Of a DNA stretch of 64,000 bases, positions 5,080-26,994 are shown one piece after another. The DNA is from Patescibacteria group bacterium (GTDB taxonomy: Bacteria; Patescibacteriota; Minisyncoccia; Phycocordibacterales; SBAW01). The stretch spans positions 67,062 to 131,061 of the forward strand of contig JAIEMM010000002.1 of assembly GCA_019752125.1 (NCBI GenBank). The letters are read 5' to 3'. Below the pieces are notes generated by a model, which did not search any database, had not been told where the DNA came from, and saw nothing but the letters and a program-made list of their open reading frames with translations. How positions within the stretch are numbered: the first letter of the stretch is position 1; each line of letters begins with the position of its first letter. A program made the position numbers and the translations under genes.

Positions 5080-5080
5080 T

Positions 5081-11170: not shown

Positions 11171-11173
11171 GCT

Positions 11174-11192: not shown

Positions 11193-11193
11193 A

Positions 11194-14100
11194 TTACTGG
11201 ACGATGACGGTGCGGGTTGCGGTACCTGTGTTGCCCGCAGCGTCAGTTGCGCTAAAGAGGATGGTGTAGGTGGTTGAAGTTGAAGTATCGAGAGTCAGCG
11301 CAGAGATATCCATGCGTGGGCCGCCATCAACAGAAACCTGGAAGCCAAGATTCTGGTCAACATTGTCGGTTACGGTTGCGCCCATGTCACTGTAGGTTGA
11401 ACCGATAGAGATAGTTGCTGGATTATTCCCCTGCAAGATAATTGTTGGTGCTACTGTGTCTGTTGAAGTTGCATTACCACCATTTCCTCCCCCGCTTCCA
11501 TTGCCGCCTGTTTGTGGTGAGCCTGTCGAACCCACACCAGAGAGCAGCGAGTCGAGCTGGGCCTTGGTGATACAGGTTTCTCCGCCTGCGTCTGAGAGGC
11601 AGACTTGGTCGGTGTGAACTTCTTTTGCATAGACTTTGTTGAAGATACCGACAGTTGCTGAGATTGCTCCGTTAAACGCACGTACCACCATCGAACCGAG
11701 TCCGCTGATAGCTGAGTTAAGTGTTGATGAGAATCCGCTGACGACTGGGCTTGTTGTAGAAGCTGTAAGAGTTTGGGTTGTTGAGGTTGCCATTGAAGAA
11801 AGTGTGTCGAGTGCCATGTCGCTTACATAGAGGTCTGACTTGATGAACACTTCGATAGTGCCTGTGTTGCTGCTTGTTGCCATCTGCGCAGTCCATGGCT
11901 GGAGCGCAACACCGATGCGGTATGTTGCTGAAGTTGCTTTTGTAGCAACACCTTCTGTTGATGAAAGTACGATCGAGTCGCCTACTGCGATATCGCCGCC
12001 TTCAAGGTTTACCTTCACTGGTACGCGGCCTGAGAGTGCGACCGGCTTGGTTGTTGAAGCGGCCAACGCATCGGCACCGCCGAGGATAAGACCTGGATTG
12101 CTTGAGATAACACCGAGGGTCTTAGCACCTGCCTTTGCCTTCTCTATATATAGAGGGTTTTGAGGATCAAGCGCTACGACATCGCCGGCTGCAAGTGTCT
12201 GGTCGTTTGTTGCGTAGCGTTCAGCAACGTCGTAGTTACCAGTGTTTGCTGCAGTGTAGTAGATATTTCCTGGAGTTGTGCCGCAGGCAACCGTTGCGCC
12301 AGCGCCAACCGAGAAGCAACCTGAACCAACGACTGTGAGGTTTGAAGTTGGAGAGCTTGTACCGATACCAACATTTCCTGCATTTGTAACTGCAAACAAC
12401 GTTGTGGTTGCAGTTGCGGTTGAAGAGCCGATTGCAAACAGCGTTGTGTTGAGATCGCCGTTTTGTGCATGGACAGAAAGTTTTGCAAACGGAGTTGTTG
12501 AGCCAACACCTGTGTTGTTGCCAGCAGCACCTGCGGTTACATAGAAGCCGCGTGACGTAGATGCTGTGGTTCCTTCAAAGGCGCTCAAAAGATACGTGCC
12601 GTTGCCAGCGTTTGTACCAACCGTAAGAGTTGGGTTGACGAGCAAGGCAGACCATTTGCCTGCACCTCCACCGTTTGAAATTGAAGTAGTGACGCTGAGG
12701 CCAGAGCCGTGCTGTGTCGTATATCCAGATACATTGGTACTTCCTTGAATAGCGAACTGGGAGGTGTTTGAAGTTCCAGTACGAGAGATAGACGCACCGT
12801 TTGCATATACCTGGAACAGTGTGCCTCCTGCGTTTACCGCCAATCCCGAAACATTAGCGGTTGAACCACTGCCTGTGTTGATAGCCACATCTCCTTGGTT
12901 GTTTACGGTAAACAACGTCGTCGTTGCTGTTCCGGTAGACGACGCGATCAAGAACATGTTTGGTACCGCGCCATCAGTTCCCATTGGCGTTGCAACAGTA
13001 AGATATGCAAGGCTAGGAGACGTTGTGCCAATACCAAGACCCACCGAAGAGCTATTTCTTATATTCTTTATAGATATAGAGTTTGAAGCGTTCGAGGCGC
13101 CGCCTACCGTCAACAACAACTTCGTATTGGCAGACAGGAGCATGTCGCCCGTGGTAACACCTGAGTTATTACCTGTGCCCGCACTGTTGAACGCAAACCC
13201 ACCAAGAACTGGAGTAGTTGGAGAGTACGCATCGTTGTACATACGGAACATCCATGGACCTGAGCTCGGCGCGTGCAATTCAAGACAATTGTCTGAGGAA
13301 CCAGCACTTGCAGAACATTGAACCTTAAAGAAAGAGTTGTTGGTGTTTGCAGTCGTGCCAAACAAGACGCGGTGGTCTTGTGTAATAAGCATTTCAGATT
13401 GTGTTGACGAACCTACAGCAAACGCTGGAACTCCTGCAGCAAGACTTGATGTATCCACTGAAAGACGTGCGAGTGGAGTAGTTGAACCGATACCGATGTT
13501 GCCTCCACCAAGTGCTGTCAAAACAGGGGTTTTTGCGTTCATCATTCGTATCTGGAACGCTGCACTCGTACTATTGTAGTTATTTCCAATATACGCAGTA
13601 GTAGCGCCCGCTGCGCTATATCCACTGTAAGCAAAGTATAGTGGTTCATCTCCTGCGCTGTCGCTCCATCTAATTGCTTCCCCGTAAGCCGCCCCTGAAC
13701 CTGCCACACTTAAGTTAGATGAAGGTGCCGCTGTACCGACGCCGACGTTGCCAGTATTTGTAACTGCAAACAACGTTGTAGTTGCTGTTGGAGTTGATGA
13801 CGCAATTGCAAACAAGGTTGAAAGACTGCCGGTTGCGCCTGCTGGTGTTGCAATGGAAAGCTGAGCATATGGGGAGGTGGTTCCAATGCCGACGTTGCCC
13901 GCAGATGTGACAGTGAGGAGCGCACTTCCGTATCGAGCGGTTGCACGACCAGCACTTGAATCTAACACACTTGTCCTGCGAGCAATGACAAACGCGTCAC
14001 TGCTTCCAAGACTATCACCGCCGTACGGCCTGCCAGTAAACCATTCAGTCTGACCAGTGGTGTCGTAGTAGTAATTACCGAGACCGCGATAGTTTGTGGA

Positions 14101-17100
14101 AGTGTCTTCTGTTTTAAAGATAGCGCTTGCAGCAGTCCAATCAGTACTATTTACGCTACCATCGATAAGCATCGCGGTTGAATTTACGCCTGTTTGATAT
14201 ATATGGAGAGGCTTCGATGGAGAGGTGGTTCCAATGCCGACATTACCACCATTTAAATAACTTACACCGTTTGAGGCAAAGTTAATTGTCCTTGTATTAC
14301 CGTTCCAGATATCAAGCGTCTGGGCGACCGTACCATTACGCGCATCATAGAGACGCACAGCTCCGTTTGCAGGAGAGAGGTATAGGGTACTATTAGCCGA
14401 ACCAGAATTACTGAAGAGATACGCTCCATCCGTCGTCGTTCGAATATCCAACGACGCATTACCCGCCCCCTGCTGCACTGTAAGGGCAGAGCTAGAAGAA
14501 GGAGTCGACGTGCCTATGGCAACTTGACCAAGATTGTTTATTGCAAACAACGTTGTAGTTGCTGTTGGAGTTGAAGATGCGATAGCAAAAAGTGTTGTCT
14601 GGCTACCTGTTGCGCCTGCTGGTGTTGCAATGGAAAGCTGTGCATATGGAGAGGTGGTTCCAAGACCAAGATTACCTGCACTTGTGATACGCAAACGCTC
14701 AGAAGGAGCTGTGGTTGAATTAGTCGAATTACGTGTAAGGAAAATGAGATCACCCATTGTGGCAGCGGTGGCATCGGTCTCTATATACCCAATACTTGCT
14801 GGTGCGAGAGCGGTAACGCCATTGACATACCCGAACCCTATAAGTCGCTGTGAACCTACGCCATATTCACGACCGCCAAGTTGTAGGTAGTTCGAGTTCG
14901 CTACTGTTGTGGCGCCAAGATTTAAGTCTCCTTGGCTGCGAGCAAGTCTGACAAGCCCACGTTGAAGAGGTGTTCCAACAATATCTGTCAATACATCAGG
15001 AGCCGCAGTTCCAATTCCAACATTTCCTGCGAAGTATGCATTGCCAGTGGTGGTTGCCCCTCCATATATAGTGAGACCTGTTGTTTGAGTGCCACCACCG
15101 ATAGTTGAAGATGCAAACGCTGTGAAGCCACCAGCAAAACTTGAAGCTGTGGTTGATGTTGCTGTGAAGTAGCCTGCGATTGCCTGATTGCCTAAGGTTG
15201 AAGAACCTTCAACAGAGAGTTTGTATGCAGGTGAAGTAGTGCCAATGCCGACGTTGCGGCTGGAATCTATGCGCATTGCTTCTCCGCTGTTGGTCCAGAA
15301 TGAGACAGCTCCCGTTGAAGTTTGGTTAACGATTTCTATATTGTTTTGACGGTTTGCCGTTGCAAACGCTGAACCTATTTGGTTGATACCCCCCTTGGCC
15401 GTACTATTTTCCTTGAAGCTTATTTGGCTCAGGCCACTCGCGTTCGTGTTGTCGAACGTAAATATTGGTGTCGATCCAGAAACGTACAGGAGACTACCTG
15501 GTGAAGTTGTGCCAAGGCCAAGATTGCCTGCATTATCGATAACCACTTTCGTAGAACCCAAAGTTTGGAATGTAAACCCAAGTGAGTTAGTTCCTGTAGG
15601 AGTCGTGTTCGAACTATCGGTTGTAGAATTGAAAACAATTGGTTTTGAAGTGTTTGTGCCCGTGTAACCCTTAATAACGTTGCCGCCCGCACCCGTCTGG
15701 ATAGCAAGGTACTGTGTACTGTTTCGTCTAAATATTGCAGTGTCTGTATTGTCCGCTGTTTCTGTAATATCGAGCAATGCTGTCGGAGCAGTATTGTTTA
15801 TGCCGACAAACCCGCTGTTAAGAACAGTAAACAGAGTCGTCGTTGCCGTTGCGGTTGAAGAGCCGATGGCAAAGAGTGTTGTGTTTGTGTCACCGTTGTT
15901 TGCCTGGATTGCAAAACGAGCGAATGGAGATGTCGAACCAACACCAAGCTGGCCGGTTGCATATTTTGAACCGGTTGTTGAATTGCCCGTACCAAAGAGG
16001 ATGTTTGCAATGTTTATTTGGTTAGACGCTGTCCCATCCGCCACCGAAACATCATTGCCAATAAGAATGTTGTTTGCTCCACTAGTGATGTTTGAATTTG
16101 CGAGTGTCGAAGCCGCACCAAGCACAATGTTTTTTGAACCAGTCGTGATTAAGTTTCCTGCACCATACCCTATAAAGGTATTGTAATCTGCGCCTGTCAT
16201 GATGCCGTATCCAGCTCGGTACCCAACAGCCGTGTACCCTTGCGCGCTGTAGACACCGTTTGAACCGTGCGCCGCAGAAGATCCTATAGCTACTGATGAT
16301 GTAGCCGATGTGTTTTGACGGCTTGCATTTGTTCCAACGGCAACGTTATCTGAGCCGGTAACACTTTGGTCCATCGCGGTGCGTCCAATAGCAACGTTAT
16401 TTGAACCCGTTCTGTTGTTATCAAGTGCGTATCTACCGCCGATGGCAACGTTAGCAGAACCAGTTGTGTTGTTGCCCAACGCACCGGAACCAAAGGCGGC
16501 GTTTTCGGTACCAGTCGTGTTTAAGGTAAGCGCAGAAGAACCAAAGGCGCTGTTGCCGTCAGCTGTATTTGCTGCAAGTGCATTGTAACCAAACGCTGTG
16601 AGGTCAGTAACAACAGCGCCACCCGCAGACGGGAGTGTGTTAAGGGCACGATACCCAAAGGCTGTTGTGCGGATCACGGTCGACGTCGCATTAAACCATG
16701 TGCCACCTGACTGTCCGCCAAAGGTCGAGAAGTTGGTGCTTGATGCATAGAGCACTGAGTTGCCATCTATCTGGTATCCACCAGTCGCACCCGCGGCATT
16801 AAAGAAACCGGAAGTAAATATATTCCCTGCAACCGAGAGTCTTTGGCCTGGCGTTGTGGTGCCGATGCCAATGTTGCCGCCGGATTGAAGTGTAAGACGG
16901 TCGGCAGTGTCATAAAAGCGCAAGTCATTCCCGACTAGGTACTGAACCCACTTATCAGTTGCAGGAGTAGCTACATTGCGGAACGAAAGCCAGTTGGCAC
17001 TACTTCCGCCAGCGGTGATGACCAGAGACTCTCCGGAATTATTCGGATTGTAGACATGCAACATTCCAGCCGGGCTCGTAGTACCAATGCCGACGAGACC

Positions 17101-17682
17101 ATTATTGTCTATAACCATCTTCGTTGATGAATTGAAGTTTGCGGCACTTGCGCCCGCATTTGACGCAACCATAAAGCGCAACTTCGTTTCTCCTCCGAGT
17201 ACCCCGAGTGCCGCAACGTTTGCAGAAACTCCAACTCCGTTACCTGTTCCCAATTGCAACGCTGAAACATATGACCCTGTATTGTCGAGTGTGCCAGCGC
17301 GGATGACGGAGTCTCCAGAACCCACAACATCTAGTTTGTATGTAGGCGTTGTAGTGCCAATCCCAACATTGCCCGCAGAAGTGATGCGCATACGCTCTGC
17401 AACGCTCGCAGAGCCATCGGGGGTCGTAAGGAAAGATAGGTACCCTGGCGCATCTCCTGTACCTGTCCAGCCAGTATCAGCGACGCCAAGTATTTGAGCT
17501 CCTCGCAATGCGTTTCCACCAGCGGTTGTGCCAAAGAAATCAATTTGCCCCAGACCATCTCCTGCAGAGAGTTCTGCGCTTGGTCGACCTTTTTGCAGTG
17601 CCAATTTTGGCGCCGACGTATCGGCGCCGACGTAGTAGAGATTAAGCGAATTGCTGTTGATGGTCGAATAGTTGCGCAACAA
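11194..17682 (-). CDS. Giant repetitive extracellular protein (2162 aa as called). It has no signal peptide and is probably the C-terminal continuation of the upstream giant ORF
   Basis: Many GNVGIGTTSP-x-AKLSV modules and Hep_Hag/YadA-head-like repeats (NNVAIG, DNVAVG, SSVAIG), giving a G/T/S/A/N-rich beta-helix-like composition. C-terminal DUF5011-type Ig-like domain (TDTVAPTIILQGNNPATISIGSTYSDMGATVTDNVDQNLG...TYTILFSATDAAGNTGTATRTVIVQ). The called start is TTG (17680-82) with no ATG and no SD. The frame is open upstream to the TAA at 18001-18003. Confidence 0.8.
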   Translation of the reverse strand: MLRNYSTINSNSLNLYYVGADTSAPKLALQKGRPSAELSAGDGLGQIDFFGTTAGGNALRGAQILGVADTGWTGTGDAPGYLSFLTTPDGSASVAERMRITSAGNVGIGTTTPTYKLDVVGSGDSVIRAGTLDNTGSYVSALQLGTGNGVGVSANVAALGVLGGETKLRFMVASNAGASAANFNSSTKMVIDNNGLVGIGTTSPAGMLHVYNPNNSGESLVITAGGSSANWLSFRNVATPATDKWVQYLVGNDLRFYDTADRLTLQSGGNIGIGTTTPGQRLSVAGNIFTSGFFNAAGATGGYQIDGNSVLYASSTNFSTFGGQSGGTWFNATSTVIRTTAFGYRALNTLPSAGGAVVTDLTAFGYNALAANTADGNSAFGSSALTLNTTGTENAAFGSGALGNNTTGSANVAIGGRYALDNNRTGSNNVAIGRTAMDQSVTGSDNVAVGTNASRQNTSATSSVAIGSSAAHGSNGVYSAQGYTAVGYRAGYGIMTGADYNTFIGYGAGNLITTGSKNIVLGAASTLANSNITSGANNILIGNDVSVADGTASNQINIANILFGTGNSTTGSKYATGQLGVGSTSPFARFAIQANNGDTNTTLFAIGSSTATATTTLFTVLNSGFVGINNTAPTALLDITETADNTDTAIFRRNSTQYLAIQTGAGGNVIKGYTGTNTSKPIVFNSTTDSSNTTPTGTNSLGFTFQTLGSTKVVIDNAGNLGLGTTSPGSLLYVSGSTPIFTFDNTNASGLSQISFKENSTAKGGINQIGSAFATANRQNNIEIVNQTSTGAVSFWTNSGEAMRIDSSRNVGIGTTSPAYKLSVEGSSTLGNQAIAGYFTATSTTASSFAGGFTAFASSTIGGGTQTTGLTIYGGATTTGNAYFAGNVGIGTAAPDVLTDIVGTPLQRGLVRLARSQGDLNLGATTVANSNYLQLGGREYGVGSQRLIGFGYVNGVTALAPASIGYIETDATAATMGDLIFLTRNSTNSTTAPSERLRITSAGNLGLGTTSPYAQLSIATPAGATGSQTTLFAIASSTPTATTTLFAINNLGQVAIGTSTPSSSSALTVQQGAGNASLDIRTTTDGAYLFSNSGSANSTLYLSPANGAVRLYDARNGTVAQTLDIWNGNTRTINFASNGVSYLNGGNVGIGTTSPSKPLHIYQTGVNSTAMLIDGSVNSTDWTAASAIFKTEDTSTNYRGLGNYYYDTTGQTEWFTGRPYGGDSLGSSDAFVIARRTSVLDSSAGRATARYGSALLTVTSAGNVGIGTTSPYAQLSIATPAGATGSLSTLFAIASSTPTATTTLFAVTNTGNVGVGTAAPSSNLSVAGSGAAYGEAIRWSDSAGDEPLYFAYSGYSAAGATTAYIGNNYNSTSAAFQIRMMNAKTPVLTALGGGNIGIGSTTPLARLSVDTSSLAAGVPAFAVGSSTQSEMLITQDHRVLFGTTANTNNSFFKVQCSASAGSSDNCLELHAPSSGPWMFRMYNDAYSPTTPVLGGFAFNSAGTGNNSGVTTGDMLLSANTKLLLTVGGASNASNSISIKNIRNSSSVGLGIGTTSPSLAYLTVATPMGTDGAVPNMFLIASSTGTATTTLFTVNNQGDVAINTGSGSTANVSGLAVNAGGTLFQVYANGASISRTGTSNTSQFAIQGSTNVSGYTTQHGSGLSVTTSISNGGGAGKWSALLVNPTLTVGTNAGNGTYLLSAFEGTTASTSRGFYVTAGAAGNNTGVGSTTPFAKLSVHAQNGDLNTTLFAIGSSTATATTTLFAVTNAGNVGIGTSSPTSNLTVVGSGCFSVGAGATVACGTTPGNIYYTAANTGNYDVAERYATNDQTLAAGDVVALDPQNPLYIEKAKAGAKTLGVISSNPGLILGGADALAASTTKPVALSGRVPVKVNLEGGDIAVGDSIVLSSTEGVATKATSATYRIGVALQPWTAQMATSSNTGTIEVFIKSDLYVSDMALDTLSSMATSTTQTLTASTTSPVVSGFSSTLNSAISGLGSMVVRAFNGAISATVGIFNKVYAKEVHTDQVCLSDAGGETCITKAQLDSLLSGVGSTGSPQTGGNGSGGGNGGNATSTDTVAPTIILQGNNPATISIGSTYSDMGATVTDNVDQNLGFQVSVDGGPRMDISALTLDTSTSTTYTILFSATDAAGNTGTATRTVIVQ

Positions 17683-18000
17683 ATATCCACCGTTCTGTGC
17701 ATTACCGCCCGAGCTAATGGTAACGCCAGCAGCAAGAGTCGGGTCAGCATCAACTTTAAGTACGGGGACAGTACTTGTACCAACCGCAAACAGATACCCA
17801 CCTGCACCAGCATTTGGCGTACCTCCTCCAATAAGTAGCGCATGGGCAATCGTTGAAGTTGCGCTCCCGAGCGTCGTTGTTGCAGTGAAGGAGCCTGCGA
17901 GCGCATTAACACCGAGGTCAGATGAGCCATTAACTGAGAGGGCGCGCCATGGTGAGGTGGTGCCAACTCCAACGTTGCCGCCGCCTAGTATGGTCAGGCG

Positions 18001-21000
18001 TTATGCCGCCCCCGTGCCTCCACGTGTTGTGGTAAATCCGAGTTCGCTGTCTGTGAAGCTGCCGTTCCAGGTTTGTCGCACCTCCATGTATGCACGCATG
18101 TTGGACGCCTCACCACCACCTATCAGCAACTTATCGAGATCGGTCGAGCTGTTTGTGCTGAAGAAATTTCCAACAATACGATTTGTAACATTTCCTGCTG
18201 TGTATCCGCCGATACTGAGGCTGTTGGTCGTTGGCACCATGCCGATTCCTACAGTTCCTGCAAAGTACGCGTTGCCGGTTGTTGTTGCTCCACCAAATAT
18301 CGTGAGGCCAGTTGCCTGTCCGCCAGCGCCGATCGTTGATGATGCAAACGCAGTGAAGCCGCCTGCAAATGACGATGCGGTGGTTGAGGTTGCAGTAAAG
18401 TAGCCTGCGAGCGCATTAACACCGAGGTCAGATGAGCCATTCACTGAGAGGGCGCGCCATGGTGAGGTGGTGCCAACACCAACGTTACCTGCAGTGAAGA
18501 TGCTGCTGCCGGCGCCCTTCGGGGTGAAGTTAAGGTTGATATTGGTATCAGTTCCCTGTGCAGAGATAGTTGGGCCAGAAAGCGTCGCAGAGTTGGCTAT
18601 CTGCAGATAGTTCACCGCGCTTGCTGCCCCTGCCGTAATGACGAGAGCCGACTTCGCACTCGTATCCGAACCGTTGGAAACAAAGAAATTTAGGTTTCCG
18701 GGGGTGTTCGGATTGTTCGCCGAACCTGGGACAGAAGCCGTGATCTGCGCAGGGCTCGCAAGTCCTCCCGTATTTCGCACCTGGAAGTCGATCAGACCGA
18801 TCACATCGTTACCGGAAAGCGAGCTTGGAGAGGCGACGCTTCCTCCTTGTTTACTGAAGCGCAGTACGCCACTGTGAGTTGTCGCACCTCCGAACCTATC
18901 GGCCTCAATTACCGCATTCGTTCCACTCTCAGCCTGCATGACGATCTTATTCTCCTGCGAACCGGTGCCTTGGACGACGAGCGCTGTGTTCGTGTTGCTT
19001 ACTGTAGATGGCGCCGCGCCGATACCGAATCCGTTAGCAGTCGCCTGCGCCCGGAGCGTACCGCCGGCAGTGAAACCGAGCTGGTCCGCGCCGATGTTGT
19101 ACATGCCCGTATTCATGTCGCCCGTGAAGGTGAAGGCAGGCGCACCCGCGGTACCGGTGACGGAAGCCGCAAAATAGGTTGAGGTTGTAGTTGCGGACGA
19201 AGTAAGACCACCAGCAAAACTTGACGCCGTGCTTGATGTTGCAGTGAAGTAGCCAGCAATTGCTTGGTTACCGAGACTTGAGGTTCCTTCAACGGAGAGT
19301 TTGTAGAAAGGAGTTGTGGTACCAAGGCCGACGTTACCGTTATAGTCGATCCTCATCGCCTCAGCCGTGGTAGCGCCCGGGGAAGATGCGCTGCTTGTTT
19401 CAAATGCAAGGTACCCTCGGTATGAACCTGAATTACCTGACGTGATGCGTGCGCCGATGTTGTTGTTTGCTCCAGTTGCCTGTCTAAACGCCATGGACTG
19501 ATAAAAGCCAGTGCCCGCAGAGCTGCCCGAGAGAATAAAGTTATCCTGATTTCCACTGTTTACCGATGTACCAACCACCTCAAGTTTTGTCCCAGGAGTT
19601 GTTGTACCGATACCAACATTGCCGCCGTTAGTTATAGAAACACGATTCGCAATTGAACCTGCAGCACCAGTTGCAAACACAATGTCAGCACCGCCGCGTG
19701 GCTGAAGCACCAAATTACCAACGGTTTGGAACGGATAGGAAGCGCCAATATTGTCAGTGCGGTAAATAGCTGGGTACAACGAATTTTCTGGGTAGGTTGA
19801 TTCAAATCCGCGCAGCGTAAGAGGGCCCGCGACTGAAAGCTGTGTGGTCGAGGCAAAGCCGAGCGTCGTCAAACCCGTAACATTGAGCGTTGAACTGAGT
19901 ATTGTTGCGCCCGTAACAGCGAGCGTCCCTTGCGCGGTGATGTTTCCTGTCGTTGTTGCACCGCCGTTGATAGTAAGACCTGTTGTTTGAGTACCACCAC
20001 CGATCGTTGATGATGCGAGTGAAAGGAAGCCGCTGGTGAAGGTTGAGAGGCCACTGGTGGTAAATGTTCCAGTCGAAGTAATAACTCCTGTGTTGCTGAT
20101 GCTAAATAATGTACTTGTTGCCGTTGCGGTTGAAGAGCCGATTGCAAACAAGGTTGTGTTTGTGTCACCGTTGTTTGCATGGATTGCAAAACGAGCGAAT
20201 GGAGATGTCGAACCAACACCAAGCTGGCCGGCTGAGTATGTTTGGCCACTAAAGCTGCCGTTATTTGTTCCAAACAAAATATTTTGGATAGTAAGTTGCC
20301 CGTTCCCTGTTGATGACGGCAACATAACACCGTTACCGATAGAAACATTGCTGGTACCAGTAGTTATTTCATTGCTTTGCGCAGAGTATCGTGGACCTAT
20401 AACGACGTTGCCGCTACCTGTCGTAATTGCCGAACCAGTGTTATATCCTAATAATGTATTGTAACCCCCTGTCAAATAACTCGATGGACCACCCCCACCA
20501 GCCCCCATACCGACGAATGTAGATCCTGTCGTTGAGGCATACGCGCCAGCGCTCGCGCCAATAAAGGTATTTTGTACAAATGCTGTTGAAGAACCAATAA
20601 GCCCTGCGTTGTAGCCTAGGGCTGTATTACGAGCGAAGGCGCCAGCAAGGTCATTGAAGAGCGCTTGATATCCAACTGCTGTTTCGGCGCTGACAGAAAC
20701 ATTTGCTTGAGCATTCAAGCCGCCAGCGCGTGGGCCAACAAAGACACTCATGTTCGTCGTGCTTGCATACAACACAGTACTTCCGTCTATCTTGTAACCA
20801 CCGGTTGAAGCCGAAGTATTGAAGAAGCCTGATGTGTACACATTGCCCGCGACTGAAAGAGTCGATCCTGGGGTTGTGGTACCAATGCCAACGTTGCCGG
20901 TTGAGACCACAAGATTTCCAGACGTGCCAAGATTTCCAGGGCGCAACATAAGATCCGCGCGTGTATCGAAATAAGAATTTCCAGTTGATTCAGCTGTAAT

Positions 21001-24000
21001 TCTAAATTCATTCACTCCAGCAGTGCTTCCAAAGAAGCCCGCATAATTAGAGCTAGAATTAACGGTCAAGTGACCTGCGTTATCCATGGAAAGCAACGTT
21101 GTGGTTGCCGTTGCAGTTGAAGAGCCAATTGCAAACAAGGTTGTGTTTGTGTCACCGTTGTTTGCGTGGATTGCAAAACGAGCGAATGGAGATGTTGAAC
21201 CAACACCGACGTTGCCCTGGACAATCAAGCCGTTAGTTGGTGCCGTTGTTGCCCAATAACTACTACCGATAGTAGTACCTCCTGAAATCGCGAGCACGCT
21301 AAGTGGGCTACCGAGACCTGAAGCCGCGCCAATACCCACAGCGTTACCGTTTGGGTTAATAAAGAGTTGCGCGCCACCATTACCATAGGCACTCGTACCC
21401 TGAATAGCTCCGTAGCCTCCTATATAAGCACCGAGCGACACCCCTGCCGAGCTACCTATTGTTCCAATGTTGGTGCTTCCAAAGTAGTTGCTGCTTGAAA
21501 TGGTGCCACCGCCAACTACGGCGAGACCAGTCTGCGGCGTTGTAGTACCGATACCGACGTTTGAAGCAAAGTATGCACGGCCTGTTGTTGTTGCAGGGCC
21601 GTTAACTGTAAGGCCGAATGTACCATCACCGATAGTTGACGATGCAAACGCTGTGAAGCCGCCAGCAAAGCTTGAAGCTGTGGTTGATGTTGCAGTGAAG
21701 TAGCCAGCGATTGCCTGGTTACCAAGAGATGAAATTCCTTCAACTGAGAGTTTTGCCCATGGAGATGTTGTGCCAATGCCGACGTTGCCTGCATTTGTCA
21801 CCGCAAACAACGTGCTTGTTGCAGTTGCAGTTGAAGAGCCGATTGCAAACAACGTTGTGTTTGTGTCGCCGTTGTTTGCATGGACTGAAAGTTTTGCAAA
21901 TGGAGATGAAGTGCCAATACCTGTTGTGCCTGCGACGATAAGACCTGTTGATGGAGCCGCAACGAGCGGATACCCAACCGATGCATTAGTTCCAACGTTC
22001 AAGCCAGAAAGTGGAGTAGATCCCGAGCGGATAGAAACACCGTTCGCCCCCGCAGGCATGTACAGAAGACCGCTACCGTCGGTGTTGTGGAAGAAGACAT
22101 GCTGGCCGCTTACCTCAAAACCGTAGTTACCCAGCACTCCTGTTGTACCAATTGTAGTATTTCCATTTTGGAGTGTTCGGAACTGGCTACCAACAGCAAG
22201 CCCGCCGCTTATCGTTGTTGTTGCAGTCGAGACACCTGCATTGATATTGCCGGCATTGTCGACAAGGAAGAGTGTTGTTGAAGCGCTGTTTGAAAGTTCA
22301 AACGCACGGCTAGTAGCAGCGGAACCACCGCCCTGAACACTCAAGGCTGCATACCCCGTTGTAGTGCCAATAGCTACATACGTAGAACCTATTCCAAATG
22401 GGTTTATGGCAAACGGAACTGCGCCGTTGCCAGCTGTCGAGACCGACTCCATATACGGGGTGCTGGCTCCTGCTGAATTGAGCAGGCGTCCAAACCCAAG
22501 TGCGCCCGACGTACCAGTAAAGTCAAACTGAACGGCTGTTTGATTTACTCCTGTTGCAAAAATGCTGCTACTTACAACCAATTTTTTGGTTGGACTAGTT
22601 GAGCCGATGCCAACATTGCCAGCGAAGTACGCATTGCCAGTAGTTGTTGCGCCGCCGTTGATAGTGAGACCACCATTTTGGTTACCGTTACCAATAGTTG
22701 ATGATGCGAGTGAGAGGAAGCCATTTGTGAATGTTGAAAGGCCGGTAACGGTGAAGGTTGATGTTGCAACCAAATTTCCTGCAGTGAGCGTACCTGAAAC
22801 AAGCGCGTCGCCTTGAACTGAAAGTTTTGCGTATGGTGATGTGGTGCCGACACCAACACTACCGTTTGACGCGATAAAAAATGCGGTGCTCGTCCCAAGA
22901 CCGTTTGTTGAAGATGCAACCATAAAGAGCGGCGATGAGCCCACGCCATTTGCCACAACAGAGAACTTAGCCCATGGAGTAGTTGTGCCAATACCGATAT
23001 TGTTTTCGACGCCTAGATTGTTGAAATACAGTTTGTTGTTCCCATACCCAAATGTTTTATACCCATACGTCCCATCCCATCCGTTAGAGATCAATGCATT
23101 GCCACCTGCGTCTTTTACAAGTATGGCACTGCCATTGTTATCCATGAGTTGAATTGCGCTTGCAACCTGCACCAACCCGTTAGACGTCTTGAGAATTCTA
23201 AGCGAGTATGCGTCGGATGGTTTGTAAATATATCCAAATGAGATGTTGCCTGAAGAATCAACCTCTATGTCTCTTGTATTTCCATTCGACGATTCAACCA
23301 CAAACCGTGTTGTCGCATCGCTTACCACCGCAAACCCAGCAGATGGGCTCGATGTGCCAATTCCAACTCTCCCTGCAAAGTACGCATTACCCGTTGTTGT
23401 TGCGCCGCCGTTGATAGTGAGACCACCTGTTTGTGTGCCATTGCCGATGGTTGATGATGCGAGTGAGAGGAAGCCGTTTGTGAAGGTTGCAAGACCAGTT
23501 TGTGTAAGCGTACCCGTGTGTGTGGTGTTGCCTGAGACAGTGAGTCCTTGTGCAGTGAGTGTTCCAAACGCAGCAAGTTGTGCAAACAAGTTTGTTGATG
23601 ACGCTGTTGTTGCGAAGAATGCGCTTGAGGTTGCGTTTGCAAGGACTGTATTTCCGGAGACCGTGAGTGTTGAAGTTGCGGTGATTGCTCCACCGAAGAA
23701 TGCAGTGCCTGATGTGTATTGATTGCCTTGGACGGAAAGATTTGTTGATGGAGAGGTGGTGCCGATGCCAACGTTGCCATTTTGATCTATTCGCAAACGC
23801 TCAGTTTTAACCAGAGATGTGGATGGAGTTGTAAAGAAGGTCATGAACGTACCGTTGGACGCAGTGTTCCAGTTTTCAGATGCGTACATACCAATCGCCG
23901 CACGACTACCTGTTACAAAATTACTTCCGTCATACCCGCGAGCGCCGATGAAACCGATCTGATCATTCGCCAAAAGTGCCGTTGGCGCTACATTTGTTCC

Positions 24001-26598
24001 TCGAGCAGAGCGCAACATAAGAGAAGATCCGCCTGAACCTGAACCGTTGTAGTAACTATCAAAGTACGCAGTAGCATCCGAATTCATACTGGAAACAGTG
24101 AGTGGCACAAGCGGAGTTGATGTGCCGATGCCCACATACCCTGCATTTGTGACGATAAAGTCCGTTTTGGTTGAAGAACCAACTACAAACGATGGACCTG
24201 CAATGCCGTTTGGATTTACTGAAAGCTGACCCCATGGAGTTGTAGTTCCAACACCTACGTTGCCGGCCGTATCAATTGCTAGTTGAGTTGTTTGGCTTGA
24301 GCCAGTCTGGAAGTAGATTGGAAGATACGTGCCAGTGCCGCGACGATTTGCTGCAATCAAAACATTACTTGCAGTAATACCAAAGTTTGCAAAAGAGGCG
24401 TTAGTTGGGTCGGAATTGTTGTACGCATTAACTGCAGACGTAGGAGATGTTCCGTTTGGAAGGAACGAGAAATTTGTATTACCGTTTGTAACATTTGTTT
24501 GGAAGGCGACACGGTTTGCGATAGTGGCGTTGCTGTAGTCTCCCAAAATTCGAGCGCCTAGCGCACTGAGCACAAGGTTACCTGTTGTTGTTGCGCCACC
24601 ACTTACCGTAAGGCCGCCTGCCTGCGTACCATCACCAACTGTTGACGATGCCTGAGAAATGAATCCCTGTGTCAACGTGACACCAAGCGGACCAACCGCA
24701 AACATCGTGTCTCCTGTTGAAGAAGCAATTTGCAAAATGTCGCCTGTCTGGCCCGCAACACCTTGGAGTTTGAGAGTTGGAGTTGAAAGGGAGCCTGATT
24801 GGTTAGCGATGTAAAGTGCTTGGTTGATTTCAAAACGTTTTGGTGCCGTTTTCCAAGAAATGAGTGCGTTAGGAACTACGTTGCCGCGGAAGAAGATAAG
24901 GTCCATGTCTTCTGCGTCAGCCGAGACATTGTCGGAGTTGATGGTGAATGTTGCAGACGCAGTACCTGCGATGGTTGTTGATGCGGCAGAGATGTTGTTT
25001 GCAACGATGTTACCTACGTACACATTTTTCCAATAGAACGATGGAGAACCGAGGTCATACTGGATGTTTTGGTCCGGCGTGAGGTTTGATTTAATCGAAG
25101 AATTAATGATCAAGCTGTTGGATGAGCTGTTGCCGAGAGTCACTGTGTTGCCACCAACAAAAAGATCTCCGCCGAAGTATGCATTGTTCGCAACCTGTAG
25201 CGTGCCAGGCGCTGATGTTGCAATTCCGATACCAAGTCCTCCTACAAAGTAGGCGTTGCCTGTTGTTGTTGCGCCGCCGTTGATAGTGAGACCACCGTTT
25301 TGGTTACCGTTACCAACTGTTGACGATGCGAGTGAGAGGAAGCCGCCAAAGAAACTCGATACCCCTGAGAGGTTGATGGTTTGCGCATTGAGCGTTCCGA
25401 TTGTGCCAGTTTGTGCAAAAAGATTTGTGCTTGATGCTGTTGTCGCGAAGAAGTTTGTTGATGTTGCATTAGCGAGCGTCGTATCTCCAGTTACCGTAAG
25501 CGAACCTCCGTTGAGGAAAAAGTTTCCCGTCGTCGTTGCATTGCCGAGCACTGTAAGGTTCGAGAGCGTTGTTGTTCCTGCAGTGAGCGAATTTTGTATC
25601 GTGACATCACCGGCAAGATTTGATGTACCTGAAACAAAAAGGCGTCTAGTTTCTACGTACTGTGCATTGATGTCGTCAGCAGTAGTGGTGTTGCGAAGAC
25701 GAACATCCGAGAGATTATTTATGACCTGCGAAACAGCGAAGTTTTGGTGTGGACTTTCGTGGCCCGGATTCTGGAGGAAAGAAATCTGTACTGCGAGACG
25801 GTTGTAGAGATCCTCGAGGCGGCCGTTGAGTTCCTCCTGAGTGACACCGCCAACTGCAACACTGCGCTCCACAACACGCTCAACAACAGGATAGTTATTT
25901 ACGATCTGAGTTTTTGAAGTCGTACCAGATGCTGCGGATGCCGAAGTAGAATTCGTCCGCGGTGCCCCAGCACCGATCGGCGAATTCTGCGCAGGTTCGG
26001 TTGTAATTTTTTGTGTAGGCTGGATGACAACGTTTTGTGCAACTTGTGTCTTATCACCAAACAACGTTGCAAAAACATTCGAGAGAAAATTTGTTGCGCC
26101 CGCAAATGCGTTACCTGCGCCCGTTGGCAACACAACTGCTGGCGCCTGTGTGCCGAAGAATGGAGATTGTGCTTCAGAGATTGCAGCGTACTGATTTTGG
26201 TGCGGCACATTCATGCTGCTTGCAAACACAAGTGCGCCAACCAAAAGAACCGCACCAACCGCCATACCTATAGGGGCACCGACAGAAACTTTTTTTACAC
26301 GCAAAAAAATTTGCTCTATTAGAGTGCTGTTTTGAATTTGATATGAGGTCTTTTCGCTTCGGCGTTGCTCTGCAAGCTGGGCTGAGCGCTGCTCTTTAGC
26401 CAAGGTGCGAGCAGATTCAAACTCTTCGATGGAGGAAGGGACCACAAACCACTGGCCGCCAATCTGTTCACCAATGAGCTTTCCTTCACGGCAAAGCTTG
26501 GAGACATAGTCTGGAGCGCACTTCAAACGCGCAGCTACTTTGCGCGCCGAGAGCATCGGTTGACCATCGTTTGAAATTATTTTTTTCGAGGATGTCAT
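18001..26598 (-). CDS. Giant membrane-anchored repetitive surface protein (2865 aa). N-terminal excisionase-like HTH module, then one TM helix, then adhesin/fibre-like repeats
   Basis: N-terminus MLSARKVAARLKCAPDYVSKLCREGKLIGEQIGGQWFV is an HTH_17/excisionase-like motif. TM helix VGAPIGMAVGAVLLVGALVFA sits near residue 110. The remaining ~2700 aa are GNxGIGTTSP modules and Hep_Hag-like repeats. It ends with TAA at 18001-03, in-frame with the next ORF. Confidence 0.85.
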   Translation of the reverse strand: MTSSKKIISNDGQPMLSARKVAARLKCAPDYVSKLCREGKLIGEQIGGQWFVVPSSIEEFESARTLAKEQRSAQLAEQRRSEKTSYQIQNSTLIEQIFLRVKKVSVGAPIGMAVGAVLLVGALVFASSMNVPHQNQYAAISEAQSPFFGTQAPAVVLPTGAGNAFAGATNFLSNVFATLFGDKTQVAQNVVIQPTQKITTEPAQNSPIGAGAPRTNSTSASAASGTTSKTQIVNNYPVVERVVERSVAVGGVTQEELNGRLEDLYNRLAVQISFLQNPGHESPHQNFAVSQVINNLSDVRLRNTTTADDINAQYVETRRLFVSGTSNLAGDVTIQNSLTAGTTTLSNLTVLGNATTTGNFFLNGGSLTVTGDTTLANATSTNFFATTASSTNLFAQTGTIGTLNAQTINLSGVSSFFGGFLSLASSTVGNGNQNGGLTINGGATTTGNAYFVGGLGIGIATSAPGTLQVANNAYFGGDLFVGGNTVTLGNSSSNSLIINSSIKSNLTPDQNIQYDLGSPSFYWKNVYVGNIVANNISAASTTIAGTASATFTINSDNVSADAEDMDLIFFRGNVVPNALISWKTAPKRFEINQALYIANQSGSLSTPTLKLQGVAGQTGDILQIASSTGDTMFAVGPLGVTLTQGFISQASSTVGDGTQAGGLTVSGGATTTGNLVLSALGARILGDYSNATIANRVAFQTNVTNGNTNFSFLPNGTSPTSAVNAYNNSDPTNASFANFGITASNVLIAANRRGTGTYLPIYFQTGSSQTTQLAIDTAGNVGVGTTTPWGQLSVNPNGIAGPSFVVGSSTKTDFIVTNAGYVGIGTSTPLVPLTVSSMNSDATAYFDSYYNGSGSGGSSLMLRSARGTNVAPTALLANDQIGFIGARGYDGSNFVTGSRAAIGMYASENWNTASNGTFMTFFTTPSTSLVKTERLRIDQNGNVGIGTTSPSTNLSVQGNQYTSGTAFFGGAITATSTLTVSGNTVLANATSSAFFATTASSTNLFAQLAAFGTLTAQGLTVSGNTTHTGTLTQTGLATFTNGFLSLASSTIGNGTQTGGLTINGGATTTGNAYFAGRVGIGTSSPSAGFAVVSDATTRFVVESSNGNTRDIEVDSSGNISFGYIYKPSDAYSLRILKTSNGLVQVASAIQLMDNNGSAILVKDAGGNALISNGWDGTYGYKTFGYGNNKLYFNNLGVENNIGIGTTTPWAKFSVVANGVGSSPLFMVASSTNGLGTSTAFFIASNGSVGVGTTSPYAKLSVQGDALVSGTLTAGNLVATSTFTVTGLSTFTNGFLSLASSTIGNGNQNGGLTINGGATTTGNAYFAGNVGIGSTSPTKKLVVSSSIFATGVNQTAVQFDFTGTSGALGFGRLLNSAGASTPYMESVSTAGNGAVPFAINPFGIGSTYVAIGTTTGYAALSVQGGGSAATSRAFELSNSASTTLFLVDNAGNINAGVSTATTTISGGLAVGSQFRTLQNGNTTIGTTGVLGNYGFEVSGQHVFFHNTDGSGLLYMPAGANGVSIRSGSTPLSGLNVGTNASVGYPLVAAPSTGLIVAGTTGIGTSSPFAKLSVHANNGDTNTTLFAIGSSTATATSTLFAVTNAGNVGIGTTSPWAKLSVEGISSLGNQAIAGYFTATSTTASSFAGGFTAFASSTIGDGTFGLTVNGPATTTGRAYFASNVGIGTTTPQTGLAVVGGGTISSSNYFGSTNIGTIGSSAGVSLGAYIGGYGAIQGTSAYGNGGAQLFINPNGNAVGIGAASGLGSPLSVLAISGGTTIGSSYWATTAPTNGLIVQGNVGVGSTSPFARFAIHANNGDTNTTLFAIGSSTATATTTLLSMDNAGHLTVNSSSNYAGFFGSTAGVNEFRITAESTGNSYFDTRADLMLRPGNLGTSGNLVVSTGNVGIGTTTPGSTLSVAGNVYTSGFFNTSASTGGYKIDGSTVLYASTTNMSVFVGPRAGGLNAQANVSVSAETAVGYQALFNDLAGAFARNTALGYNAGLIGSSTAFVQNTFIGASAGAYASTTGSTFVGMGAGGGGPSSYLTGGYNTLLGYNTGSAITTGSGNVVIGPRYSAQSNEITTGTSNVSIGNGVMLPSSTGNGQLTIQNILFGTNNGSFSGQTYSAGQLGVGSTSPFARFAIHANNGDTNTTLFAIGSSTATATSTLFSISNTGVITSTGTFTTSGLSTFTSGFLSLASSTIGGGTQTTGLTINGGATTTGNITAQGTLAVTGATILSSTLNVTGLTTLGFASTTQLSVAGPLTLRGFESTYPENSLYPAIYRTDNIGASYPFQTVGNLVLQPRGGADIVFATGAAGSIANRVSITNGGNVGIGTTTPGTKLEVVGTSVNSGNQDNFILSGSSAGTGFYQSMAFRQATGANNNIGARITSGNSGSYRGYLAFETSSASSPGATTAEAMRIDYNGNVGLGTTTPFYKLSVEGTSSLGNQAIAGYFTATSSTASSFAGGLTSSATTTSTYFAASVTGTAGAPAFTFTGDMNTGMYNIGADQLGFTAGGTLRAQATANGFGIGAAPSTVSNTNTALVVQGTGSQENKIVMQAESGTNAVIEADRFGGATTHSGVLRFSKQGGSVASPSSLSGNDVIGLIDFQVRNTGGLASPAQITASVPGSANNPNTPGNLNFFVSNGSDTSAKSALVITAGAASAVNYLQIANSATLSGPTISAQGTDTNINLNFTPKGAGSSIFTAGNVGVGTTSPWRALSVNGSSDLGVNALAGYFTATSTTASSFAGGFTAFASSTIGAGGQATGLTIFGGATTTGNAYFAGTVGIGMVPTTNSLSIGGYTAGNVTNRIVGNFFSTNSSTDLDKLLIGGGEASNMRAYMEVRQTWNGSFTDSELGFTTTRGGTGAA

Positions 26599-26924
26599 GA
26601 AGTCCGATATTGCTTTTGTTTGTCCAGTGATTTCGGAGAAGGCACTACATATATTTTACGAGAAAAGTTGTTATTTCTTCAGGAAATTTTCATCAAAAAC
26701 TGTGGATAGAAAATAATTAAAAACTTCGTAAAAGCTTTTATAACAAAAGTTATTTTGGAAAACGTATTCAAGTACATCAACAAATTTTTATGCGCTGTTT
26801 TTAGTACAAAGTTTTTGAAAATTATTGCTAATTTTTGTTACTACTTTTTTTATTATGTTTTATAGATTTATCGTATTGCCTTACCGATATCTCGGCTAAA
26901 CGAGTTGATAAATATAAGAAAAAT

Positions 26925-26949: not shown

Positions 26950-26994
26950 GATTTTCTATGAGATTTTTCTTAGTAAATTCTTACCAAAAAATTT

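Follow-up and report, generated by a model that had tools for sequence, protein, structure and literature searches.

Among the closest described counterparts of the locus studied here are the mosaic adhesive trimer (MAT) fibres of Bdellovibrio bacteriovorus, namely Bd1334, Bd2439, Bd2133 and Bd3182 (PDB 8oml, 8onf/8ol4, 8ond, 8ojn; Caulton et al., 2024, PMC10769870). These proteins measure ~600-1,150 aa and have a cleavable signal peptide, a conserved, beta-rich N-terminal domain of 130 aa and a variable C-terminal tip, and they end either in an S74 chaperone-protease (SDxxxK) or in an alternative adhesive tip domain (PMC10769870). Within the Patescibacteria, giant adhesion-type proteins of 6,025 aa and 4,939 aa, belonging to the >4,000-aa class and carrying FhaB/DUF2341 domains, have been described in Patescibacterium danicum (PMC11809585). 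Split genes are not treated in the paper on giant genes in Omnitrophota.

Here we analyse a giant fibre locus in a 64,000-nt stretch of a Patescibacteria contig (the window; JAIEMM010000002.1, positions 67,062 to 131,061). We show that its two long ORFs share an ancestry as one gene, in which a stop codon has replaced a conserved glutamate, that relatives carry this gene intact, and that its second half has neither a start nor an export signal of its own. Sequence comparison makes it highly probable that 11194-26598 of the minus strand is a single gene broken by a point nonsense codon.

Results

One frame with a single internal stop

Translated in a single frame, 11194-26598 of the minus strand yields 5,135 codons and no internal stop other than the TAA read at 18003..18001, in agreement with a first-pass annotation that had described two giant ORFs in one phase separated by a single TAA (Table 1; ORF1 was originally listed as 18001..26598 on the minus strand, 2865 aa, with the stop codon included in its coordinates). 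That annotation had also read 17683-18000 as open and had named an in-frame stop there as the observation that would count against it; none was found in the 106 sense codons. The letters directly 3' of the TAA are, as it reported, RLTILGGGNVGVGTTSPWRALSVNGSSDLGVNALAGSF, and the first start-type codon past the TAA is indeed the TTG at 17682, the nearest in-frame ATG being codon 204. The absence of a Shine-Dalgarno (SD) sequence before ORF2, listed among its arguments, is uninformative, an SD core being present in only one of the 37 ATG-start ORFs of the window. Its statement that the second ORF has no signal peptide holds: no hydrophobic export segment was found in the first ~430 residues past the TAA, where the best 19-residue window reaches a Kyte-Doolittle value of 1.2 (threshold 1.6). 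No promoter-like or terminator-like site was found between ORF1 and ORF2.

Table 1. Features of the fibre locus (window coordinates).
Feature	Coordinates	Strand	Remarks
Upstream neighbour, 302 aa	26995..27903	-	HTH-like N-terminus as in the fibre, C-terminal TM segment; BLASTP E=9e-11 to fibre N-terminus
ORF1, N-terminal part of fibre gene, 2,865 codons	18004..26598	-	ATG start; NCBI MBY0472751.1, 'hypothetical protein K2Q00_00485'
HTH_17-like domain (excisionase/MerR-type), predicted cytoplasmic, residues 15-61	26416..26556	-	Pfam HTH_17 E=3e-4, 21.4 bits (cutoff 27 bits), sub-threshold
Single predicted TM segment (signal anchor), residues ~103-127	26218..26292	-	Kyte-Doolittle peak 2.29
101-nt direct repeat, upstream copy	18389..18489	-	encodes GNVGVGTTSPWRALSVNGSSDLGVNALAGYFTA
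In-frame TAA, codon 2866	18001..18003	-	aligned with the conserved Glu of module motif A-E-R-L-x-I; inferred ancestral codon GAA
106 sense codons from TAA to first start-type codon	17683..18000	-	fibre-module coding, not intergenic spacer; stop-free
101-nt direct repeat, downstream copy	17879..17979	-	95% identical to upstream copy, 510 nt away
ORF2 as called, remainder of C-terminal half, 2162 aa	11194..17682	-	TTG start; ends in TAA at 11194-11196
Peptidase_G2 (intramolecular-chaperone/autocleavage domain of phage fibres/spikes), weak	12073..12282	-	E=4.3e-5, 23.5 bits (cutoff 25 bits), sub-threshold
C-terminal Bact_surface_Ig-like domain, PF16403 (formerly DUF5011)	11200..11439	-	E=3.4e-14, 53 bits

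Same-frame neighbours are common in this compact genome, with 16 cases of open stretches of at least 100 codons that have one stop between them. Continuity of the frame past the TAA is nonetheless more than chance, because the region past it shares 61% identity with a fibre protein from the database (P0001), in a match that begins 4 codons after the stop, and because the tail-fibre profile phrog_18345, whose match starts at residue 1 after the stop, is matched on both sides by a 137-aa junction piece with X at the stop. Alignments with two further proteins, P0002 and P0361, run uninterrupted through the stop position in the same frame on either side. We also considered and rejected a gene that would run on the other strand or in a different frame across the junction, where Pfam gave zero hits.

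Relatives carry the gene as a single ORF

The orthologue was found through homologues of GatB and GAPDH and their contigs, and through an exhaustive search of representatives; a word-indexed protein search with a 400-aa junction query returned only proteins of <700 aa, the giant relatives being invisible to it. In the closest relative, whose GatB and GAPDH are 91% and 96.5% identical to those of the window, the locus consists of gatB, a 258-aa gene, the giant gene, RAYT and GAPDH, and the giant gene is a single ORF of 4,428 aa (4,429 codons when retranslated, with the terminal stop only). Its start is 71% identical to the first 300 aa of ORF1 and its C-terminus 79-85% identical to the last 334 aa of ORF2 (dN/dS 0.17-0.19); between these conserved ends the fibre body is reshuffled even in this nearest relative, at 25-55% identity. 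Seven more contigs drawn from NCBI, JGI, ENA and Logan (L073, L077, L093-L096 and L098) carry this orthologue without a stop at 99.97-100% identity. Further syntenic relatives have single ORFs of 2,640, 2,651, 3,103 and 3,277 aa, all with the HTH start, and P0361, a non-syntenic member of the family, is a single ORF of 5,287 aa whose alignment to the joined protein runs from one end to the other. In the available parts of the genes of six relatives there is no internal stop. Uninterrupted orthologous loci, which the first-pass annotation had suggested looking for, thus exist in the 4,428-aa ORF and four more syntenic genes, and no two-gene orthologue was seen among them. Two candidates were set aside in the course of these searches: P0109, 77% identical to part of ORF1, is a separate 675-aa secreted fibre with a common module and not an orthologue, and the small ORFs upstream of GAPDH in GCA_029288895.1 are unrelated secreted proteins and not decayed fragments of a giant gene.

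The fibre locus is chromosomal and flanked by housekeeping genes (gatB, obg and secA on one side, gap and rpiB on the other), with no phage genes seen around the fibre gene among the window ORFs examined. The position of the 302-aa upstream neighbour holds a gene of 237-281 aa in the syntenic relatives examined, and this neighbour may partner the anchor of the fibre.

The stop replaces a conserved glutamate

The fibre modules share the motif (A/S/T)-E-R-(L/M)-R-I-x4-GNVGIGTTSP, and the TAA falls on its conserved Glu. This residue stands opposite the TAA in five of eight paralogous module copies (four times as GAG, once as GAA), is near-invariant at the aligned position (at least 90% of a 20-protein alignment), and recurs at the corresponding site in the collinear homologue P0361 (PAERLRITGGGNVGVGTTSPW versus AA*RLTILGGGNVGVGTTSPW), in the 4,428-aa orthologue and in the solved Bd1334 fibre. 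Glu codons in the fibre gene are GAA in 48 cases and GAG in 24. As the TAA stands on a conserved Glu, one G>T change (GAA -> TAA) explains the stop. The assignment is by module homology and not by a one-to-one orthologous codon, because the stop-bearing module has no positional orthologue: scans of genome and metagenome contigs with junction peptides returned distant paralogues only, nothing near-identical. In a model of a neighbouring module copy the stop-bearing motif is a predicted beta-strand and not a domain boundary, and the change from Glu2866 to stop would end translation in the last strand-forming motif of its module. With the syntenic single-ORF orthologues, the conserved Glu at the stop upholds the earlier proposal of a single anchored fibre of ~5,100 aa with HTH, TM, repeats and an Ig-like end.

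Repeats around the stop and age of the break

The TAA had been placed inside a recently duplicated segment of 75 nt. Near-identical blocks do exist there, but they measure 101 nt and the TAA lies between the copies, in locally unique sequence 22 nt upstream (in the sense of the gene) of the downstream one. The longest exact match between the copies is 40 nt. A repeat mis-join was rejected as the origin of the stop, since the TAA is in unique sequence outside the block and the exact match is so short. Removing in silico the 510 nt between corresponding positions eliminates the TAA and leaves one ORF of 4,964 aa. DNA repeat families are common to both halves, and all their spacings in the gene are multiples of 3. 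Neither tandem repeats nor simple-sequence tracts were found in 11000-27000; a phase-variable truncation in the usual sense, one of the options first raised, is therefore unsupported, the lesion being a substitution.

Past the TAA, the 2,268 codons contain neither another stop nor a frameshift, which bounds neutral decay to < ~1.5% divergence, and dN/dS is 0.19 downstream versus 0.20 upstream of the stop (dS to the nearest relative 0.8-1.0). Given this absence of a second lesion and the similar constraint on both sides, the break is either recent or artefactual; the intact downstream 6.8 kb would fit a sequencing error, or continued selection, just as well as a recent break.

Architecture of the encoded protein

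The HTH region also matches phrog_6401, a DNA-binding protein (E=3.9e-5), and its sequence is kept in all syntenic orthologues. Residues ~103-127 are the sole 19-residue window with a Kyte-Doolittle value of at least 1.6 in 5,134 residues. The repeat modules match the PHROG tail-fibre profiles 9942 and 18345 (best E=8e-28), and one orthologue carries the Pfam family Gp34_trimer. The MAT chains 8oml, 8on4, 8ol4, 8ond and 8ojn are matched by sequence, at E=4.8e-10 to 4e-5 with whole halves and at 4.4e-12 with a 241-aa segment. The predicted structure of the module after the TAA (mean pLDDT 63, confident in residues 140-227) has a Foldseek match to 8onf with E=5.6e-8 and 38% identity. The Hep_Hag-like repeats of the first-pass annotation did not survive this scrutiny: Hep_Hag/YadA families are absent in Pfam searches from both halves and from ten ~500-aa pieces, even at E<=1, and we reject a trimeric autotransporter identity in favour of modules homologous to MAT and tail fibres. 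Its DUF5011 Ig domain is confirmed as PF16403, which is also found at the C-terminal end of the 4,428-, 3,277- and 5,287-aa relatives. The Peptidase_G2 similarity spans positions 30-100 of the 228 in the profile, and the protein has no match to Peptidase_S74. A single-sequence AlphaFold model of the C-terminal 390 aa was unusable (pLDDT 34), and a PDB sequence search with the C-terminus gave no significant match.

By sequence, the modules are homologous to those of MAT and phage tail fibres, with a putative trimeric state and a putative surface location. The intact product would be a type-II membrane protein, with its HTH-like domain in the cytoplasm at the N-terminus, followed by one TM anchor, beta-helix modules of the trimeric tail-fibre/MAT type over ~4,600 residues, a region with weak similarity to a G2-type chaperone and an Ig-like C-terminal tip. 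By analogy, it would form a surface fibre of ~0.2 micrometre in length through which an Adlerbacteria-like epibiont (Patescibacteria) contacts other cells.

Discussion

We see here no new coding mechanism, but either a gene break of the ordinary, recent sort or an error in one base. On balance we favour a genuine nonsense allele over an error, with somewhat better than even confidence, and we infer that such an allele is very recent. Its truncated product would be an anchored stump of 2,865 aa, leaving the distal 2,268 codons untranslated. Since trimeric fibres nucleate at their C-terminus, a stump that would have neither the tip nor the C-terminal folding region points to a loss-of-function or truncation allele, although the chaperone-like domain is here a sub-threshold match.

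It is also conceivable, though we consider it the less probable course, that the organism has GAA and an intact 5,134-aa ORF, and that the T is a consensus or assembly artefact, either a base-call error or a minority allele that the assembler adopted in a gene rich in repeats and variable between strains. The source is a metagenome-assembled genome, the lesion amounts to one base, and everything downstream of it is wholly intact and under normal constraint. Assemblies of the nearest relative show irregularities in the same gene, with a 1-nt indel in contig L097, a repeat rearrangement in L076 and many contigs that end inside the giant gene. However, the local uniqueness of the TAA speaks against a mis-join, and the other window ORFs examined showed no broken gene. 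Moreover, substitution errors are rare in short-read consensus sequences, and a 15-kb gene is a big target for real mutations.

A more elaborate scenario would make the TAA a reversible OFF state, either tolerated or put to use by the population: the stump would be kept on the HTH-like domain, and recombination or slippage between the 101-nt repeats would excise the stop in frame to restore a 4,964-aa fibre. The geometry is suitable, with 95%-identical repeats 510 nt (170 codons) apart bracketing the TAA, a deletion that yields a single ORF, and repeat spacings that preserve the frame throughout the gene. The reshuffled gene body of close relatives and the rearranged L076 assembly from the population of the nearest relative go in the same direction, as does the module reshuffling proposed for giant Patescibacteria proteins (PMC11809585). 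Still, we regard this scenario as improbable. There is no evidence of the deleted form, such repeats arise by chance in any repetitive gene, and nothing points to a maintained stop; with 40 nt as the longest exact match, recombination between the repeats should be infrequent. If true, an ultrasmall epibiont would be switching a giant host-contact fibre by recombination. On this reading the combination of HTH, TM and fibre might, with the paralogous HTH-TM neighbour, further act as a putative ToxR-like contact sensor.

Programmed readthrough or recoding of the TAA, also put forward in the first pass, would produce isoforms of 2,865 aa and 5,134 aa. The continuous frame is compatible with this, and the base after the stop is a C (TAA-C). 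In E. coli, a C after the stop codon makes for comparatively weak termination. Against it, TAA is the commonest stop of the window ORFs (21 of 46, with 17 TAG and 8 TGA), the six relatives have no stop to read through in the available parts of their genes, the 150 nt that surround and follow the stop show no folding advantage over shuffled sequences (z = +0.61), no Rfam match at E<=1 lies within 3 kb and no tRNA gene lies in the window. The stop also sits on a conserved residue of a motif predicted, from the neighbouring copy, to be a beta-strand, and not at a domain boundary. We therefore hold readthrough to be very improbable.

Equally hard to sustain is the layout of the public annotation, an anchored 2,865-aa protein and an independent one of ~2,160 aa: ORF1 has its own NCBI entry, the accession numbering appears to leave room for ORF2 as MBY0472750.1, and more distant relatives do have tandem fibre genes, but ORF1 stops mid-module without a tip domain, ORF2 starts mid-module at a TTG without promoter, signal peptide or TM segment, single-gene orthologues have ends matching ORF1 and ORF2 respectively, and the genuine tandem pairs are quite unlike these two ORFs. 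Such pairs show a distinct C-terminal domain and an AT-rich spacer, and in them the second gene has an ATG and a signal peptide of its own.

Returning to a single gene broken by a nonsense codon, we propose that the 2,865-aa 'hypothetical protein' of the public record and the other protein that it probably lists should give way to one interrupted gene of ~5,134 codons, or to an intact one if the organism has GAA. The stop codon itself brings no new lesson on decoding. With this locus, Adlerbacteria-like Patescibacteria gain a clearly bounded family of giant fibres, whose architecture runs from an HTH-like domain and a TM anchor through MAT/tail-fibre modules to an Ig-like tip, and whose syntenic members lie between gatB and gap.

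As a lesion, the break resembles the ordinary nonsense pseudogenes or truncation alleles of large repetitive surface-protein genes, with the same single-base stop on a conserved sense codon, intact orthologues and open downstream frame; nothing essential differs, except that this gene is unusually long and its allele a putative one. As a protein, it shares with the giants of P. danicum the phylum-level group, the size class and an inferred role in host contact, and in both cases full-length homologues across genomes are lacking and domain reshuffling is suspected. It departs from them in being built of tail-fibre/MAT modules on an HTH-TM anchor. Among phage tail fibres, its modules match the T5 L-shaped fibre pb1 (PDB 4uw7/4uw8) by sequence and fold, and the likeness to T4 gp34 (PDB 4uxg) comes through the Gp34_trimer family of one orthologue. 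Unlike phage fibres, the gene is chromosomal among housekeeping genes, and its product is predicted to be membrane-anchored and is ~5x longer.

The MAT fibres of Bdellovibrio are likewise cell-encoded and phage-tail-fibre-like, in a bacterium that lives on other bacteria, and a variable C-terminal tip is a common trait. The same module is visible in Bd1334 as '...T-E-R/K-M/V-R/V-I-x3-G-N/L-V-G-I/V-G'. The window protein differs in its ~5,100 aa, in having an N-terminal HTH-like domain and TM anchor instead of an N-terminal signal peptide, and in a distal end with sub-threshold G2-type similarity and an Ig-like tip, where no S74 domain was detected. Its conserved ends, combined with a body reshuffled between relatives whose GAPDH is 96.5% identical, make this fibre a candidate organelle for attachment to a host and a relative of the fibres with which Bdellovibrio recognises its prey.

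The two ORFs are very probably one gene cut by a stop codon

Translation of the minus strand between 11194 and 26598 yields 5,135 codons in a single frame with one internal stop, a TAA, and the 106 codons between this stop and ORF2, where a further stop might have been misread, are all open (the residues directly after the TAA are RLTILGGGNVGVGTTSPWRALSVNGSSDLGVNALAGSF). The two giant ORFs do share one frame, and the first-pass annotation was equally right to regard the TTG at 17682 as simply the earliest start-type codon past the TAA. It had also stressed that ORF2 lacks both an ATG and a Shine-Dalgarno sequence. The first part stands, the earliest in-frame ATG lying 204 codons past the TAA and encoding the Met of the conserved 'AERMRI' module motif, while the second carries no weight, because a Shine-Dalgarno core is present in only 1 of the 37 ATG-start ORFs of the window. 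Same-frame adjacency is by itself unremarkable in this compact window, where one stop divides two open stretches of 100 codons or more in 16 cases; the special feature is that homology runs through the stop. The alignment with the best database match (P0001, 61% identity) begins four codons past the TAA, and one alignment segment of a second homologue, P0002, spans it. When a 137-aa segment spanning the junction is searched with the stop written as X, its match to the tail-fibre profile phrog_18345 extends across the X, at profile positions 415-480, a stretch enclosed by the span that an intact downstream module matches (389-481).

Features of the interrupted fibre gene and its surroundings
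Feature	Position	Strand	Description
ORF1	18001..26598	-	2,865 aa, ATG start; NCBI MBY0472751.1 'hypothetical protein K2Q00_00485'
Internal stop	18003..18001	-	TAA
Open interval between stop and ORF2	17683-18000	-	106 codons
ORF2	11194..17682	-	2,162 aa, TTG start
Near-identical 101-nt blocks	17879-17979 and 18389-18489		95% identical, 510 nt apart
HTH_17-like domain	residues 15-61		Excisionase/MerR-type; Pfam sub-threshold, 21 bits; PHROG DNA-binding family support
TM-like segment	residues ~103-127		Only one in protein
Bact_surface_Ig-like domain	C-terminal end		E=3e-14
HTH-TM gene upstream of fibre gene	26995-27903	-	302 aa
IS200/Y1-transposase-like (RAYT-like) ORF	10505-11170	+	Immediately past the fibre gene's stop
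Hairpins	near 10479-10494, 10671-10688, 11173-11191		
Type IV pilin-like gene	6289-6870	-	N_methyl motif
Phage_holin_4_2 gene	30318-30680	-	Between obg and DsbD-like gene

At 100% identity, the window's GatB and GAPDH match NCBI entries from a Patescibacteria MAG. Among its relatives, Candidatus Adlerbacteria MAGs come nearest, with GatB 91% and GAPDH 96.5% identical to those of the window. Their contig ERZ27254847:k141_4303 keeps the order of the window (obg, gatB, a small HTH-TM gene, the giant gene, a Y1-transposase-like gene, gap, rpiB), and the search for a syntenic orthologue found there one uninterrupted ORF rather than two genes, called as a single product of 4,428 aa with a C-terminal Ig-like domain. 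A fresh translation of the gene, put together from L072 and L092, which overlap, runs for 4,429 codons with a terminal stop only, and the same stop-free sequence recurs at 99.97-100% identity in seven more contigs from NCBI, JGI, ENA and Logan (L073, L077, L093-L096, L098). The product shares 71% identity with ORF1 over its first 300 residues and 70-85% with the end of ORF2 over its last ~410, so ORF1 and ORF2 match opposite ends of a single orthologous gene. The ~4,000-aa body in between shows 25-55% identity, a changed order and a length differing by ~700 aa; such conserved ends around a shuffled body, despite the closeness of GatB and GAPDH, indicate rapid module shuffling. More distant syntenic relatives have single ORFs of 3,277, 3,103, 2,640 and 2,651 aa with the same initial HTH motif, the first of them carrying HTH_17, Gp34_trimer and Ig-like domains. 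An exhaustive representative search retrieved P0361, a 5,287-aa protein from a single 15.9-kb ORF; the joined window protein and P0361 are collinear (residues 16-4811 vs 13-5257). We consider it very likely that one ancestral gene has been cut by a point nonsense codon.

The codon that was lost can be proposed as well. Fibre modules end in ...(L/M)xFxT...(A/S/T)-E-R-(L/M)-R-I-x4-G-N-V-G-I-G-T-T-x-P, a motif with counterparts in the solved Bdellovibrio fibre Bd1334 ('...TDSERMRITGSGLVGIGT' and '...GSTEKVVIDQNGNVGVG'), and the TAA takes the position of its Glu ('GTGAA*RLTILGGGNVGVGTTSP'), a residue whose conservation reaches 90% or more across 20 aligned homologues. P0361 reads 'PAERLRITGGGNVGVGTTSPW' at the aligned position, and the aligned codon in eight paralogous copies within the gene is GAG (four copies), GAA, GAC, AAT or ACG (one each). 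Glu codons across the gene are GAA 48 vs GAG 24, and a single G>T change from GAA to TAA is the parsimonious origin of the stop. AlphaFold predicts a beta-strand for the 'RLTI' residues right after the TAA, in the next module, and for the equivalent 'ERMRI' at that module's own end (pLDDT >90), so that the stop would take out a strand rather than fall between domains.

Age and nature of the lesion

No second stop and no frameshift occur in the 2,268 codons past the TAA. About 3% of the possible single-base changes in these codons would yield a stop, and under neutral decay such intactness has a probability below 5% above ~1.5% divergence. In comparison with the nearest orthologue, dN/dS is 0.19 (dS 0.78) past the stop, in the C-terminal 410 codons, and 0.20 (dS 1.0) ahead of it, in the N-terminal 300. 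The intact downstream frame can mean that the lesion is very young, that it is not real, or that selection still acts on the part past the stop.

The probable explanation is a real nonsense allele of recent origin, whether fixed or polymorphic, because a fast-evolving and probably dispensable 15-kb surface gene is a large mutational target, because the TAA lies in unique sequence, and because the other window genes examined show no damage. An error of consensus or assembly is less likely: the source is a MAG, and the relative's own assemblies of the fibre gene include a repeat rearrangement (L076) and a 1-nt indel (L097). We regard a recombination-reversible OFF state as improbable. The TAA had been placed inside a duplicated segment with near-identical 75-nt blocks; the blocks are in fact 101 nt long, and the TAA lies between them in locally unique sequence, 22 nt from the downstream copy. 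They differ at five sites, four of them synonymous, with a longest exact run of 40 nt, and in-silico removal of the stop-bearing 510 nt that they bracket leaves one 4,964-aa ORF. No simple-sequence tract was found.

Programmed readthrough, raised earlier as an option, seems very improbable: TAA is the commonest terminator of the 46 window ORFs (TAA 21, TAG 17, TGA 8), which also excludes codon reassignment, the 150 nt around and after the stop are no more stably folded than shuffled sequences (z = +0.61), and Rfam gave no match at E<=1 between 16500 and 19500. The window has no tRNA genes, and alternative-frame or opposite-strand ORFs at the junction gave no Pfam matches. The interval between the ORFs contains nothing resembling a promoter or terminator, and none of its start codons has a -10-like hexamer nearby. 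The first ~430 residues past the TAA were checked for an export signal and contain no hydrophobic segment; from its sequence, an internally started ORF2 product would begin mid-module and could not be exported.

Elsewhere in the window, a TAnAnT hexamer (-10-like, often TATACT) ends 3-12 nt before the ATG in 13 of 37 ATG-start ORFs, against a background of 3% (for example at 27903(-), 29336(-), 31435(-), 38082(+), 43707(-), 53054(+), 56351(-) and 62837(+)). Together with the rarity of Shine-Dalgarno cores, this suggests that mRNAs of the organism are mostly leaderless or have very short leaders.

The fibre and its neighbours

The HTH_17-like domain is conserved in all orthologues, and under the positive-inside rule the RVKK just before the TM-like segment points to a cytoplasmic N-terminus. 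The rest of the protein, ~5,000 residues, matches PHROG tail-fibre families (down to E=8e-28) and, by sequence and by fold, solved chains of the mosaic adhesive trimer (MAT) fibres of Bdellovibrio and phage T5 pb1. The Hep_Hag-like repeats of the first-pass annotation were not recovered, Hep_Hag/YadA giving no match in the protein at any threshold tried, whereas its C-terminal Ig domain is clear. Near the C-terminus there is a sub-threshold similarity to the Peptidase_G2 intramolecular chaperone (23.5 bits vs a 25-bit cutoff).

By analogy, the intact protein would be a membrane-anchored trimeric fibre with its tip touching another cell, of the order of 0.2 micrometre long if scaled from Bd2133's 142 Å per 370 residues. 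Such contact would fit the epibiotic lifestyle proposed for Patescibacteria, in which giant adhesion-type proteins have been reported (PMC11809585). With the TAA, translation would end after 2,865 residues, and the product would retain the anchor and ~2,700 residues of shaft, with the module's last strand, all of the distal shaft, the tip and the chaperone-like region missing. Fibres of the MAT class need their C-terminal part for folding and binding, and loss of function would therefore be expected.

Directly upstream, the 302-aa protein combines a C-terminal TM segment with a fibre-like HTH N-terminus (BLASTP E=9e-11) and may act as partner to the cytoplasmic domain of the fibre; the syntenic relatives examined have a gene of 237-281 aa at this position. 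On the other side, GC-rich 'ggtccgacc' palindromes flank the RAYT-like ORF, which has long been at this site and is no recent insertion, as the nearest relative has one at the equivalent place (L092 9253-9918). Type IV pilin-like genes lie among pentose-phosphate genes near the fibre locus, in more copies in the relative (L092 12560-15602) than in the window. The Phage_holin_4_2 gene is found between the same neighbours in most relatives examined, and this conserved position argues for a housekeeping membrane protein, not a prophage remnant.

Comparison with known fibre systems

The phenomenon is ordinary, a nonsense-interrupted gene that the public record lists as separate hypothetical proteins, and its first outcome is an annotation correction. 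The second is that a family of giant HTH-TM-MAT-like fibres can be delimited: it occupies a conserved locus in Adlerbacteria-like bacteria, and its members keep their ends while the body is reshuffled. That ORF1 and ORF2 are two true genes is very doubtful when they are set against the true tandem fibre loci of more distant relatives, where a distinct C-terminal domain ends the first gene, AT-rich sequence with several stops forms a short spacer, and the second gene starts at an ATG of its own and encodes a signal peptide; ORF1 and ORF2 show none of these features.

A short secreted fibre on a Logan contig (P0109, 675 aa) has a ~360-aa module 77% identical to ORF1 residues ~2419-2775, far above the body of the true orthologue, and this hints that fibre genes or genomes have exchanged modules. 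MAT fibres, displayed by the predator on its surface, have a trimeric beta-helix form and variable C-terminal tips that recognise prey glycans, and S74-type C-terminal chaperones secure their productive trimerisation (PMC10769870). In L084/L085 and the second ORFs of L010, L035 and L043, a C-terminal domain '...DLW(V/L)(W/F)...(Y/F)R(L/I)xGKR(F/L)DW..WP...' replaces the Ig-like tip, and these alternative domains suggest tip swapping like that described for MAT fibres.
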